From Nitratidesulfovibrio vulgaris str. Hildenborough (GTDB lineage Bacteria > Desulfobacterota > Desulfovibrionia > Desulfovibrionales > Desulfovibrionaceae), in contig NC_002937.3 in assembly GCF_000195755.1 (NCBI RefSeq), forward strand, positions 1,530,001 through 1,562,000: 32,000 nt of DNA, written 5' to 3'. Made by a program: the position numbers and the translations under genes. The notes below the pieces were generated by a model, which was not told where the DNA came from, made no database searches, and saw only the letters and a program-made list of their open reading frames with translations. Numbering within the stretch: the first letter of the stretch is position 1; each line of letters starts with the position of its first letter. This document shows, piece by piece, positions 26,363 through 30,071 of the stretch.

Positions 26363-26429
26363 TGGTTTGCTACGTTCTAGGACGTTCCCGCAAAGAAAAG
26401 CAGATGCGATGAGTGGATGAATACTTTAA

Positions 26430-26463
26430 AAGACCCCGGAAACATTCGTGTTTCCGGGGTCTT
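26430..26463 (-). terminator. Perfect 15-bp hairpin with a 4-nt loop (ttcg on the plus strand, CGAA on the minus-strand RNA); U-tract only on the minus strand
   Basis: AAGACCCCGGAAACA-ttcg-TGTTTCCGGGGTCTT. On the minus strand the stem runs into TTTTAAAG. On the plus strand it is followed by gcattctg, which has no T-run. Confidence 0.5.
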
Positions 26464-26925
26464 GCATTCTGTATGGCGGAGAGGGTGTCCGCTAAACATG
26501 GTTTATAGTTGTCTGTTTTAGCTTGATTTTGATGTTTTGTATTTTGGTAGTTGCCCCCAAGGTTGCCCCATAAGGGTGGTGACTTCTGTAGCCTTCGTGC
26601 TTGTGGCTATGTCGGTCTCCTTGCTGGTGGTTGATGACGCGTTGCAACCTCATCGCTATCCCAACGGAGTAAAGCATGGCCACTTCCTTTTGAAGGGCCA
26701 ACTGTCAGGTAATAACAAGATTAAATCACCAGACGCAGCCGTGGTGTGCATCCATATCGGCTCTTGCCTTCGCCCTTGCTATTGGGGTAATCCACTCATT
26801 GATGTTCAATCGTTCTTCCTAGAAGTGTGAGCCTATTGCTTTGCGGCGTCGCGGCTCCTCCTCTGGGGTTCGCCTTCGGTCTTGGTAGGCCGGGCGAAGC
26901 GCATCAGGTCGCAGGAAGGGTGAGT

Positions 26926-27054
26926 ATGGGCCGGACGCAACGATATGTGGAGATTCCTCCCGATGCTGGAAGGGGCAGCGTTGCCGCTGCCATGAAGCCT
27001 TCCGGTGTCGCTGTCGTTAGCTCGTTGCCTCTCGGTCTGTGTTGTTGTCGGTAG
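26926..27054 (+). CDS. Candidate 42-aa small ORF with a C-terminal CCC motif (coding status uncertain)
   Basis: AGGAAGGG lies 5 nt upstream of ATG 26926. The product is MGRTQRYVEIPPDAGRGSVAAAMKPSGVAVVSSLPLGLCCCR. The stop is 7 nt before the strong terminator. It is the inner part of GTG-started track ORF 26827..27054. Third-position bias is not host-like, and the region also folds into hairpins. Confidence 0.3.
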   Translation: MGRTQRYVEIPPDAGRGSVAAAMKPSGVAVVSSLPLGLCCCR

Positions 27055-27061
27055 AACGAAT

Positions 27062-27099
27062 CGCCCCCGTGCTGTGTGTCAGCTCGGGGGCGTTTTTTT
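27062..27099 (+). terminator. Strong Rho-independent terminator (or attenuator) immediately upstream of ORF A
   Basis: CGCCCCCG-t-GCT-gtgtgtc-AGC-t-CGGGGGCG followed by TTTTTTT (27093-27099). No T-run is present on the opposite strand. Confidence 0.8.
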
Positions 27100-27112
27100 G
27101 CGGGAGATGGCA

Positions 27113-27733
27113 ATGAGTTGTTCTTGTAGAGGGCAGGGGCTCTTAGCTTGGCTTTACATGGGAATCGCGGGGGTCTTCATTTTGATGGTGCCGTGCAATG
27201 TACGGGCTGGAAGCTCTCCGCAGCCCTATGTGCTGTGCCGCGCGCATAAAGTCCCTCTTAAAGGTATGCCCGACTTCTATGGCGTAAAAATTCTCGTGAC
27301 CACCAAGGCTCGCGATATGTCGACCATGTCCATGGAGCAGTTGGCTGCAACGGCCTACTCGGCAATGGAATATTTCAATGCGGGTGAATACGCCGATGCC
27401 TTGTTGGTCAATGTGCTGCTCACTCCTAGCTGTGCAGATACGGGCCTGTCGATCGCCCGTGCTCAAGTGGGCGAAGGTCGACGAATAGTCTCTGCGGCCC
27501 GAAAGTCATGCGGCCCTAGCGCCGCCATGCTTTGTGTCGCGGATGCTGTTGCCAGGGCTAAGCGTGGTTCCGCGCGGATGACTTCAGATGCCGATTACGC
27601 CAAGGCTGCCACGGTCTGCAAGGTGTCTGCTCGTGCTGCGAAGGATGTTCATCTCGCTTTGGCAGAATATGCACTGCATGAGGACTACTATGAAGTCACG
27701 GAGAACATTTTGCCTAAAAGTCCGAGTAAATAG
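27113..27733 (+). CDS. Hypothetical secreted/membrane-anchored protein (ORF A)
   Basis: Track ORF 27005..27733 was trimmed because its 5' part covers the terminator. ATG 27113 has GGGAG 6 nt upstream (alternative ATG 27107). The N-terminus MSCSCRGQGLLAWLYMGIAGVFILMVPCNVRA/GS looks like a signal peptide or anchor. I recognise no family. Confidence 0.55.
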   Translation: MSCSCRGQGLLAWLYMGIAGVFILMVPCNVRAGSSPQPYVLCRAHKVPLKGMPDFYGVKILVTTKARDMSTMSMEQLAATAYSAMEYFNAGEYADALLVNVLLTPSCADTGLSIARAQVGEGRRIVSAARKSCGPSAAMLCVADAVARAKRGSARMTSDADYAKAATVCKVSARAAKDVHLALAEYALHEDYYEVTENILPKSPSK

Positions 27734-27758
27734 AAGTTGATGCTGGAGGCGTGAGGCT

Positions 27759-28655
27759 ATGAAGAGAAGAACGGCTGAACTGATAAGGATACTGCAAGGT
27801 AGAAAAATGCTTACCCATATGAATATAATGATAGGCAATGCTCGTCACTGTTTAGTTAACTGGATTAGCCAGAATAGCTCTCTGTGCGCTCTTCGGGATT
27901 TAAATTTTGAAGTTAGCTTTCCTTACTGTGTACAGTATGCGCAGGCTCTGTATATATTGAGGTATTATCCAGCATATTTTGCTGAGAACTATATGCTTTA
28001 CACAACATTGAGTGAGATGGGGTGCCGTCGGCCTGATATCGCGTCGATTGGCTGCGGAAGCATGGTTGATGGCGCAGCTGCAAGCTATGTTTTTGATTCA
28101 TTTACGTATCATGGGTATGATTTGAATGACTGGAGCTTTAAGGGATTAACTCCTAATGGTGGTTCTGTCATCTTCCACAATGGAGATGTGTTTAGCGAGA
28201 CGTCATGGGATGTTGAGCGTGATGTCTTTTGTTTTTCAAGGTCGCTGCGTGATATTGGAGATAATATTGATGGATTGAGGTGTGCCGTTGAGTCAACTGA
28301 TTTTAAATATGATAATATTTATATATGTGCGACTTACAATAGCGCACCGGATGAGATAAGAAGGTCTCACAGGGGCATGTTAAGGCGTTTTGCTTCATTT
28401 TTTGAAGACTACGATATTATAAATGAGGACTATTGGGATTCAGGTAGATTGTCTAAAAGAGGAAGAGCGATAAGGAGTCATCTTGATTGGTGGGTTCACA
28501 GCGAGTCTAGCTTTTGTTCTTCACTTCTTTCTAGGTGTAGAGATATGTTGTCGGATGGGTGCGCTACTTCTGATTGCGAAACGAACTTACAGAAAAAACC
28601 TATTTTAAATGTCACAGAGCTTGGATTTGAGGTGTTACATCTTTTACGCAGATGA
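27759..28655 (+). CDS. Hypothetical protein with degenerate class-I SAM-methyltransferase-like motifs (ORF B)
   Basis: 298 aa with GGAGG 9 nt upstream. The ordered motifs are DIASIGCGSMVDG (motif I-like), YHGYDLND (motif II-like), VIFHNGDVF and DVFCFSRSL. The gene is AT-rich: I counted 41% GC over 27781-28620. The functional call is tentative. Confidence 0.55.
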   Translation: MKRRTAELIRILQGRKMLTHMNIMIGNARHCLVNWISQNSSLCALRDLNFEVSFPYCVQYAQALYILRYYPAYFAENYMLYTTLSEMGCRRPDIASIGCGSMVDGAAASYVFDSFTYHGYDLNDWSFKGLTPNGGSVIFHNGDVFSETSWDVERDVFCFSRSLRDIGDNIDGLRCAVESTDFKYDNIYICATYNSAPDEIRRSHRGMLRRFASFFEDYDIINEDYWDSGRLSKRGRAIRSHLDWWVHSESSFCSSLLSRCRDMLSDGCATSDCETNLQKKPILNVTELGFEVLHLLRR

Positions 28656-29671
28656 GGACGTTCATGACCTTCAAGAATGACGTCGATGGGTGTTCATATC
28701 CTGGCATATTGTCTGCGAGTAGGTCTACGGATATACCAGCATTCTATGCAGAATGGTTCTCGAGAAGGCTACGAGATGGGTATGTTGTTTGGAAAAGTCC
28801 TTTTAACCAAAAGTGTTACTCTGTTTGTTTTGAAAAAGCAGGTGGCATTGTCTTTTGGACCAAGAACCCTAAGCCTCTAATGCCTTTTTTGGACGAGGTT
28901 TCAGAGCTTGGCTATGACTATTACTTTCAGTTTACGGTCAATGACTATGAGAGTGAAGGTTTTGAGCCGAATGTACCTCCCCTTGATGAGCGGATAGAGA
29001 CGTTTCGCAGCTTGTCGCAAAAACTGGGCAAGGAGCGAGTCATCTGGCGCTTCGATCCCATTTGCTTGACCCGTGAGCTTGACGTCGAAGGTATCATGGC
29101 TCGGCTACGTTCTATCGGGGAGTGCTTGAAGGGGTATACTGAACAGCTTGTCATCAGTTTTGTGGACGTCCATGCGTACACGAAGGTGCAACGTAACATC
29201 AAAACAGCAGACGGCTTTTGCCTTCGAGAGCCTAGCATGGAAGAGCAGGATGAATTGGCAAGGCGCATTTCGTCCTACGCAAAAGAGATTGGCGTATCGC
29301 CTTCAGCGTGCGGCGAACGTAGGTCTTTTGCACATTTTGGCATTCTTCCTAACAAGTGCATAGATGGCGAGTTGTTCAAGAGAATATGCCGGAAAGGCAA
29401 CATAAAACTTCAAAAGCATCTGGGAACGTACATCGATCAATACTCGCTCCTGTCTCCGCAAAAGAAAGACGTTACCCTGTGCAAGGACAAGGGGCAGCGT
29501 AAAGAATGTGGATGCGTCGAGAGCAAAGATATAGGAATGTACAATACGTGCAACCATATGTGCGTGTACTGCTATGCGAATACATCGCAGCGTGTGGTCG
29601 AAAAGAACCGGGTACTGCATGATGTCAATGGAGAATCGCTCATCCCTACGTCGAGAACGGTGGAGGAGTAG
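28652..29671 (+). CDS. DUF1848-type protein with a C-terminal Cys cluster (putative Fe-S / radical-SAM-like enzyme) (ORF C)
   Basis: 339 aa. The ATG overlaps the ORF B stop (ATGA at 28652-28655); an alternative ATG is at 28664. Motifs are SASRSTDIPAFYAEWF, VFWTKNP, YYFQFTVNDY, IWRFDPI, ISFVDVH, CID and KGQRKECGCVESKDIGMYNTCNHMCVYCYAN. These match my recollection of Pfam DUF1848. No search was run. Confidence 0.7.
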   Translation: MRTFMTFKNDVDGCSYPGILSASRSTDIPAFYAEWFSRRLRDGYVVWKSPFNQKCYSVCFEKAGGIVFWTKNPKPLMPFLDEVSELGYDYYFQFTVNDYESEGFEPNVPPLDERIETFRSLSQKLGKERVIWRFDPICLTRELDVEGIMARLRSIGECLKGYTEQLVISFVDVHAYTKVQRNIKTADGFCLREPSMEEQDELARRISSYAKEIGVSPSACGERRSFAHFGILPNKCIDGELFKRICRKGNIKLQKHLGTYIDQYSLLSPQKKDVTLCKDKGQRKECGCVESKDIGMYNTCNHMCVYCYANTSQRVVEKNRVLHDVNGESLIPTSRTVEE

Positions 29672-29696
29672 CTTCGTGCCATGATATTTCGGCGTG

Positions 29697-30071
29697 ATGG
29701 AAGTTGTTTTGATGAGCCTTGAGATTCTGCTCCTCATTGGCATTGTGGCCGGGGCCATCGGCTATCGTGTGGCCAACGGCAAGGGCCGGGATGGGCTTGT
29801 CTGGGGCATGCTGTGCTTCTTCATCCCCATTCTGGTGCTGCTGCTTCTGATTCTCGGCCCCGGCAGCGGTGTACCTCCGGGCTACCGCCGTTGTCCGCAT
29901 TGCGCCGAACCCATCCACAAGGCCGCCAACGTGTGCCGCCACTGCCGAGGCGAGGTCACACCGGTGCAGCAGAGCACAGGCCATGCAACGCGCCCCTGCC
30001 CGCACTGCGGCGCAGACATGGACAACGACGCGCGCGTTTGTACATCGTGTGGCAAGAGCGTGTCGTTCTAG
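29697..30071 (+). CDS. Small membrane protein with two C-terminal zinc-ribbon motifs (ORF D)
   Basis: Track ORF 29694 (GTG)..30071. I prefer ATG 29697, or ATG 29712. Two hydrophobic helices are present (LEILLLIGIVAGAIGY and GMLCFFIPILVLLLLIL). They are followed by CPHC-x10-CRHC and CPHC-x10-CTSC. The GC content is back to host-like. Confidence 0.65.
   Translation: MEVVLMSLEILLLIGIVAGAIGYRVANGKGRDGLVWGMLCFFIPILVLLLLILGPGSGVPPGYRRCPHCAEPIHKAANVCRHCRGEVTPVQQSTGHATRPCPHCGADMDNDARVCTSCGKSVSF

Follow-up and report, generated by a model that had tools for sequence, protein, structure and literature searches.

What stands between the attachment site of an integrated phage and the first gene beyond it, and why should a strong terminator lie only 13 nt ahead of that gene? 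The question is raised by a 32,000-nt stretch of DNA (hereafter, the window) from Desulfovibrio (Nitratidesulfovibrio) vulgaris Hildenborough, a model sulfate reducer for which transcript maps and genetic tools exist. An earlier note on this DNA pointed to the segment just before gene A and offered three readings, i.e., a riboswitch- or attenuator-type leader, a small Cys-tailed precursor or leader peptide, and an independent small RNA (sRNA). Comparison with related prophages and with metagenome and viral contigs reveals that the segment is one member of a repeat family whose copies precede different cargo genes; it ends in an intrinsic terminator, and its 42-codon open reading frame (ORF) shows no protein-level selection. 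The reading preferred here, held with about even confidence, is that the unit is a non-coding cassette-junction module in a defence hot spot of temperate phages, which would insulate the cassettes and whose repeats would aid their exchange.

A repeated unit ahead of different cargo genes

The element is defined by the following features.

26758-27100, plus strand: one copy of the proposed cassette-junction unit, ~345 nt (alignment A4, nhmmer, and BLAST)
26913-26920, plus strand: Shine–Dalgarno (SD)-like AGGAAGGG, 5 nt before ATG 26926, identical in all nine aligned copies
26926-27054, plus strand: 42-codon ORF, open in all copies, with no protein-level selection
27058-27099, plus strand: rho-independent terminator, type 1 (folding energy and matches to contigs L041 and L038)
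27102-27115, plus strand: ribosome-binding site (RBS; GGGAG) of cargo gene A and its start codon at 27113, 13 nt past the T-run (N-terminus comparison)

Copies of the unit were located by scanning metagenome and viral contigs for conserved 20-24-mers, and BLAST maps were made for contigs L037, L038, L040, L041, and L044. Nine distinct copies on five independent contig types, 73-94% identical to one another, were aligned (A4); a tenth, L052, is 98.9% identical to the copy of L044. One to three copies are present per contig, and the contigs represent related prophages or come from metagenome and viral collections. An nhmmer profile recovers every copy with E values of 1e-81 to 1e-117 and finds a single copy in the window's own genome. 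The unit begins at ~26758 and closes with the terminator; on the left, the copies start at different points, and in copy L038b the 5′ third is absent. Outside these contigs, a BLAST search that set 26725-27112 against 300 genomes from this family returned only chance matches of 24-43 nt, the unit had no match in the phage and plasmid collections, and the exact core motif did not occur in the species-representative genomes. Contigs L039 and L042 were considered as carriers and rejected, their matches being chance ones of 22 nt.

The gene set that begins 13-70 nt after the unit differs from copy to copy: gene A in the window, and elsewhere a BRCT gene with a gene for a 221-aa protein, an ATPase-like gene with one for a 145-aa protein, a gene for a 103-aa protein, or the pair B′-C without A. 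Whole arrays can be followed in L041:1578-7755 (the same contig as L043) and L038:1461-6426. There, a gene for a CI-like S24 repressor is followed by the type 1 terminator alone and by a gene for either an AbiP2 reverse transcriptase (RT; E 1.8e-179) or PDC-S31 (DUF2971); then come a unit with cargo, a second unit with cargo, a third unit with the BRCT and 221-aa genes, and finally gene D. Every array is bordered on its right by gene D (29708-30071 in the window) and an SNase gene, both conserved. An extra DUF4875 gene was also observed after D in L041. Contig L037, which has the same phoU, attachment (att) core, and insertion sequence (IS) remnant as the window, diverges from it after window position 27017, i.e., in the tail, the terminator, and the genes, and rejoins it inside gene D.

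The genes that the earlier note had grouped as an A-D cluster (27113-30071) are thus a mosaic rather than one unit: D serves as a conserved flank of the hot spot, and A can be found away from B-C. Indeed, L040 carries B′-C-D without A (B′ is only ~77% identical where aligned), and the sole homologue of gene A (56% identity; L029:1386-1991, on a sediment contig) lies directly after a CI-like repressor gene, without B or C. No relative was found in IMG/VR with a profile of gene A. Gene C of the window matches PADLOC RTasDUF1848 (RT-associated DUF1848) with an E value of 7e-44. From these comparisons, the locus is a defence and accessory hot spot with a conserved spacer before each of its cassettes.

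A separate arrangement was observed in strain DP4 (CP000527.1, L045:13081-20997), where the unit follows a truncated tail-tube gene (123 aa vs. 140 aa in intact relatives) and precedes a BRCT gene and a gene for a 1958-aa DUF4011/AAA_11/AAA_12/DUF3320 helicase-nuclease-like protein. The next tail genes, seen in the related phages L046 and L047, are absent from L045.

The terminator of the window copy consists of an outer stem of 8 bp, all G/C (27062-27069 / 27085-27092), which encloses a U-U mismatch, an inner 4-bp helix (27071-27074 / 27080-27083), and a 5-nt loop, followed by the T7 run 27093-27099. With 8 + 4 bp and U7 on the transcribed strand, it has the G+C-rich stem-loop and U-run of an intrinsic terminator. 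The segment 27062-27099 folds with -26.5 kcal/mol (z -6.3), a value equalled by none of 200 shuffles; a consensus scanner overlooked it because of the internal mismatch alone. Its end at 27099 and the two in-frame ATGs of gene A at 27107 and 27113, all reported in the earlier note, are present. The likely start is 27113, since GGGAG lies 6 nt upstream and both P0004 and the 56%-identical homologue begin with MSC. The scenario named there as refuting, a terminator left from a decayed upstream gene, does not hold, as it belongs to the repeated module. Type 2 copies have a strong terminator of their own (-23.7 kcal/mol). The type 1 terminator also occurs alone, without the unit, 3′ of the CI-like repressor gene (window 27059-27100 matches L041:2279-2320 and L038:5839-5795). 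When the CI-like repressor and its neighbouring proteins from L029, L041, L038, and L044 were compared with the unit by tblastn, nothing significant emerged.

The 42-codon frame and the fold of the unit

The ORF runs from ATG 26926 to TAG 27052-27054 and ends in GLCCCR, 7 nt before the terminator stem, just as had been described together with its SD sequence. None of the ten copies has lost the ATG, the SD-like sequence, or the 42-codon frame. On its own, the ORF is not beyond chance: at 63% GC, 33 stop-to-stop frames of ≥20 aa occur within 630 nt. At the divergence of the copies, an open frame throughout would not be improbable by chance either. The codon-usage score of -0.39 per codon barely separates the ORF from other frames, unlike the real genes of the window. 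Over the 31 codons common to all copies, 17 non-synonymous changes at 67 sites stand against 5 synonymous ones at 26 sites, which corresponds to a ratio of non-synonymous to synonymous rates (dN/dS) of 1.32. The changes are distributed over the codon positions as 9:5:8, with no third-position bias, and dN/dS across all six frames is 0.46-1.37, so that no frame on either strand looks coding. A 29-codon ORF on the minus strand was rejected as well, its ATG being lost in 6 of 10 copies.

The C-terminal part of the frame exists in two types, ...SSLPLGL(R/C)CCR (type 1) and ...LPLGFDLLSCL (type 2). The frame ends in CCCR in the window copy, in RCCR in four copies, and in LLSCL in five; the triple Cys is therefore unique to the window. 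The distance from the stop codon to the terminator stem is 7-8 nt in both types. This spacing is not diagnostic, because an ordinary cI gene has the same stop-to-terminator distance and the same terminator. An exhaustive phmmer search with the 75-aa extended frame against 1.8 billion representatives gave a single 42-aa homologue, P0006 (73% identity), and a word-index protein search with the 42-aa ORF gave no candidates. Gene callers skipped the ORF on ~200 contigs with the window sequence and for two other variants; it was called only on L037, where one caller predicted P0006.

These data bear directly on the idea of a Cys-tailed precursor or leader peptide, in which the ORF would encode a functional small protein or a ribosomally synthesized and post-translationally modified peptide (RiPP) whose tail is modified by the methyltransferase-like B and the DUF1848 protein C. 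The good SD-ATG spacing, the frame kept open in all copies, and the prediction of P0006 are in its favour, and the tail types may differ by 6-nt in-frame indels (shared LPLG), although MAFFT aligns the tails gap-free. Nevertheless, on the comparison of copies this reading is rejected as very improbable, because dN/dS is 1.3, the CCC tail is unique, codon usage is poor, the unit is present without genes B and C, and PADLOC places gene C in a defence-associated DUF1848 class; moreover, B′-C occur with an RCCR-tailed unit, and the phmmer search found nothing besides P0006. A tempting wrong annotation, that of a Cys-tailed RiPP precursor, is thereby removed. As an observation apart, codons 11-13 (window 26956-26964; IPPD) encode Pro-Pro-Asp just before the compound hairpin described below; the motif is kept in 8 of 10 copies and is SPD in L044 and L052. 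Pro-Pro-Asp stalls ribosomes that lack EF-P.

At the RNA level, the body of the unit comprises the following elements.

26811-26820, plus strand: pyrimidine-rich segment complementary to the SD-like 26913-26922 (helix 1, 10 bp; RNAalifold and pair counts)
26822-26908, plus strand: helices 2 and 3, two hairpins forming the most variable part of the unit (92-97% of cells paired)
26949-26960, plus strand: small hairpin GGAG-AUUC-CUCC, stem identical in all nine copies
26961-27010, plus strand: compound hairpin (CTGGAAGG...CCTTCCGG, extended), minimum free energy -32.3 kcal/mol, z -3.9
27018-27054, plus strand: variable tail, type 1 here; type 2 copies diverge here and stop at the same alignment column

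Folding of the entire 283-nt stretch is more stable than that of its shuffles (z -3.6). The compound hairpin proposed earlier does exist, although the motif as it was written lies at 26966-27005 and not at 26962-27003. In the RNAalifold consensus, 96.3% of cells pair, three pairs are changed on both sides, and the covariation score is beaten by only 1 of 500 shuffles. Two of the pairs with changes on both sides lie in helix 2. The compound hairpin contains one pair in which both partners have changed (U-G to G-U), and pairing in it is disrupted by five single changes. Helix 1 shows a standard pair in every copy with both arms, yet it is invariant and thus gives no covariation evidence. The covariation support for the modelled structure is counted as weak, because the structure was derived from the same sequences, most pairs never vary, and five changes break pairs; this weakness counts against a riboswitch or cis-acting leader. 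The core of the unit (26926-27017) contains no indels vs. 4.5 expected (P 0.011) and 23% variable columns vs. 35% upstream (P 0.049), which suggests that it is under somewhat stronger constraint than the rest.

A scan of the window copy and three L041 copies against Rfam 15 found no family at the gathering score, so that the riboswitch option of the earlier note gains no match. The best hit, RF01677 (Pseudomonas sRNA P35; 27047-27092), reaches 30.5 bits vs. a gathering score of 70, with an E value of 0.043, and corresponds essentially to the GC-rich terminator hairpin. Matches to His_leader were likewise discarded, being terminator-driven and below threshold. No tandem repeats were found within 26400-27200. 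The repeat of a diversity-generating retroelement was also considered and rejected: the differences between copies are not confined to adenines, and the neighbouring RT is of the AbiP2 type.

In folds of the nascent RNA, the 5′ arm of the terminator is paired with the SD/ATG region. These pairings were dropped as evidence of an antiterminator, since the duplex energies are no better than shuffled ones. The best upstream duplex does not surpass those formed by shuffled upstream sequence: among the copies, a fraction of 0.22-0.99 of the shuffles does at least as well, exceeding 0.9 in four of five type 1 copies and reaching 0.56 in the 5′-truncated L038b. The lack of antiterminator evidence argues against a riboswitch-type switch. 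Taken together, a leader or attenuator for the downstream genes is the closest of the three readings first offered and is partly supported in a weak form: the unit always stands directly before cargo, it ends in a terminator, and there is no room for a promoter after it, whereas a riboswitch match and an antiterminator are lacking and covariation is weak.

Proposed insulation and read-through, and competing readings

If the unit is a cassette-junction module, transcription that enters it or starts in it would be stopped by the terminator 27062-27099, and the cassette would be insulated from its neighbour. The gene A cassette would then be expressed only by RNA polymerase that reads through the terminator, because only 13 nt lie between the T-run and the start of gene A. 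Scans found no sigma-70-like site after the terminator, and 13 nt are too short for one. Read-through could come from leakage, from a ribosome that finishes the 42-codon frame 7 nt before the stem, or from a phage antitermination factor; a ribosome terminating 7-8 nt before the stem could interfere with the base of the hairpin. The near-identical repeated modules, together with the conserved right flank (gene D), would supply the homology for swap, gain, and loss of cargo. The dependence on read-through, its regulation, and the role in recombination are what we infer from this layout.

Two features in the 5′ part of the unit are needed to weigh this reading and its competitors.

26758-26835, plus strand: 5′ block, antisense-homologous to the RBS and first ~20 codons of a helix-turn-helix (HTH) early gene of related phages (nhmmer and alignment A5)
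26777-26805, plus strand: weak candidate for a sigma-70-like promoter, TTGCTA, 17 nt, TGATGT (read from A4)

Several observations weigh against the cassette-junction module. A sigma-70 position weight matrix scan of 26440-27130 and a scan with a separate tool gave nothing above chance. The candidate promoter has counterparts in five other copies of eight (TTGCGA/TTGCTG ... TAATGT), and the -10 element of the window has G instead of A at the second hexamer position (TGATGT). Termination is not universal across the copies: in that of L040 (L040:303-345), a perfect 14-bp hairpin is retained through changes in the 3′ arm and the U-run is lost, so that termination ahead of B′-C-D is probably weak there. 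A terminator 13 nt before gene A could merely mean that gene A is barely expressed. Finally, all copies come from one species group, and their high similarity could reflect recent spread rather than selection.

The origin of the 5′ block bears on the competing readings. The first ~60-80 nt of the unit were matched by nhmmer to L041:1032-1094 (E 3e-7) and L029:78-156 (E 5e-5), where an HTH early gene (N-terminus MEL/SM.DVTQL.PTRQELLAL...) adjoins the cro-position gene and cI. The minus-strand frame of the HTH gene is destroyed in the units. The unit may thus descend from a collapsed immunity region, as a copied antisense promoter, an antisense RNA, or a scar. In the last case, a fragment of the immunity region would have been duplicated by unequal recombination and would hitch-hike as a neutral relic in which only the terminator is active. 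This is doubtful, yet it keeps an appreciable share of the probability: two places in the L041 immunity region match the 5′ block and the 3′ terminator, arranged and oriented just as these are within the unit; every frame has a dN/dS of ~1, the taxonomic spread is small, and the left boundaries of the copies differ. A neutral relic, however, would not be expected to have fewer substitutions and no indels in its core relative to the rest of the unit. Furthermore, copies with flanks that differ by 15-25% share an identical SD-like sequence, ATG, and several hairpin stems, and the frame, the stop position, and a terminator persist in both of the diverged tail types.

An independent trans-acting sRNA of ~290 nt, extending from ~26811 to 27099 with a promoter in the 5′ ~50 nt, is unlikely; its position before cargo would be incidental. 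The unit does resemble a self-contained block, having a conserved 5′ region, a structured body (z -3.6), and a strong terminator, and ~45 nt separate the minimal left boundary of the copies from the proposed start downstream of it. The RNA might act on the ribosome-binding region of the HTH early gene of related phages, to whose RBS and start the 5′ block is antisense-homologous. As an observation of its own, 21 consecutive nt of the unit RNA could form a duplex with the SD region of this gene in which only two pairs are G-U. However, no HTH early gene is found in the prophage of the window, copy L038b persists without the 5′ third, the promoter scan gave nothing above chance with a defective -10 candidate in the window, no Rfam family matches, and covariation is weak.

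A further proposal, judged improbable, makes the unit a portable translation-gated switch. The 5′ block would supply the promoter, the ORF could encode any peptide, the anti-SD helix 26811-20/26913-22 would normally mask it, and, on translation, the terminating ribosome at the base of the terminator 7 nt downstream would let the polymerase through. If true, a single sensor reporting the translational or infection state of the cell would govern at least five unrelated defence systems, and the shuffling of cassettes would be driven by its repetition. A known leader-ORF attenuator is that of pyrBI of Escherichia coli, where a leader frame of ~40 codons is translated up to the attenuator hairpin and termination before the structural gene is thereby suppressed. 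Like pyrBI, the unit has a short ORF with a good SD, ending 7-8 nt before an intrinsic terminator ahead of a gene; its peptide is unconstrained, which would be expected where translation itself is all that counts. Unlike in pyrBI, no promoter, pause site, or regulatory codons were identified in the unit.

Known counterparts and prophage setting

For the cassette-junction module, the closest described analogue appears to be the cassettes of the promoter-early stem-loop (PeSL) of T4-like phages. PeSLs are repeated intergenic transcription signals that flank variable ORFs in hyperplastic regions, and their copies serve as points of homologous exchange at which unrelated cargo is swapped between the same flanks (PMC2839356, PMC4122927). 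As with PeSLs, the unit is repeated (1-3 copies per contig) and the cargo varies between the unit and the conserved gene D. PeSLs are small terminator/promoter motifs of lytic T4-type myoviruses, whereas the unit is ~345 nt long, has a structured body and a 42-codon frame, and resides in a temperate phage of a sulfate reducer. Moreover, a PeSL is a composite of a terminator stem-loop with a functional promoter, while the unit has a terminator at its 3′ end and only a candidate promoter; PeSLs were compared by their description.

Temperate phages carry morons and accessory genes expressed during lysogeny beside att or downstream of cI, as exemplified by rexAB of lambda and by the defence hot spots of prophages and satellites. 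The present locus is similar in that accessory and defence genes of deviant base composition occupy a fixed hot spot (at attL here, and downstream of the CI-like repressor in L041, L038, and L029). It differs from the classic order of promoter, gene, and terminator, as here the terminator directly precedes the gene and a long conserved spacer is repeated. In type III toxin-antitoxin systems such as ToxIN, RNA repeats are followed by a terminator and the toxin gene. The unit is likewise a non-coding RNA region with a terminator directly before a defence gene, but it has no internal tandem repeats, and since it precedes unrelated cargo it cannot be a cognate antitoxin. Integron attC sites, at the size commonly given for them, are far shorter than the unit; in addition, the left boundaries of the unit vary, and the only integrase seen is of the P4 type and lies at the other end of the prophage.

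Little is known about how the defence cassettes of prophage hot spots are separated, expressed, and exchanged, and such hot spots are under active study. A spacer in a hot spot that also houses an AbiP2 RT, PDC-S31, the DUF1848 pair, a BRCT protein, and a secreted protein is a candidate signal for expression or insulation, and its repeats would be a visible substrate for recombination that explains the turnover of cargo.

The element lies within the first 640 nt of a ~39.6-kb prophage integrated at tRNA-Ser, adjoining attL, between phoU and gene A. Comparison of three junctions gave the attL core as the 16-nt TATGGCGGAGAGGGTG (window 26472-26487). The core at the far end is the 3′ end of tRNA-Ser(CGA), and attR lies 39.6 kb downstream, beside the P4-type integrase (L030:3760-3956). 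In a 37.8-kb assembly from another sample (L024), the sequence from window 26471 onward is joined to phage-integrase DNA that lies 39.6 kb downstream here. Such attP-type junctions, found in L024 (L024:2260-2400) and L027, suggest that the phage excises in these samples. D. vulgaris is polylysogenic, and its prophages are inducible (PMC6006170). Genes A-D are accessory genes of the phage.

Contigs that contain exactly this phage are 100% identical over 26471-28000 and thus provide no comparative signal. Between L037 and the window, phoU is 99.6% identical and the prophage DNA 84-96%, which indicates different phages at the same att site; this pair is therefore unusable for a neutral rate. The low G+C content over most of genes B and C (27700-29650; 39-51% vs. 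~60% around) is consistent with recently acquired cargo.

Between the att core and the unit, window 26592-26725 is the solo terminal ~130 bp of an IS. Full copies are present at four other places in the genome with 77-84% identity (541473, 629857, and 2086248 at 84%; 1240783 at 77%), and the remnant also matches contig ends in a related genome. Its transposase (HTH) has a mutated start codon, and nothing of the element's body is left. Since both L037 and the junction contig of the excised phage carry the remnant, it has long been part of the phage. The terminator hairpin of phoU lies at the outer side of attL (26430-26463), and a hairpin resembling it occurs on the integrase side.

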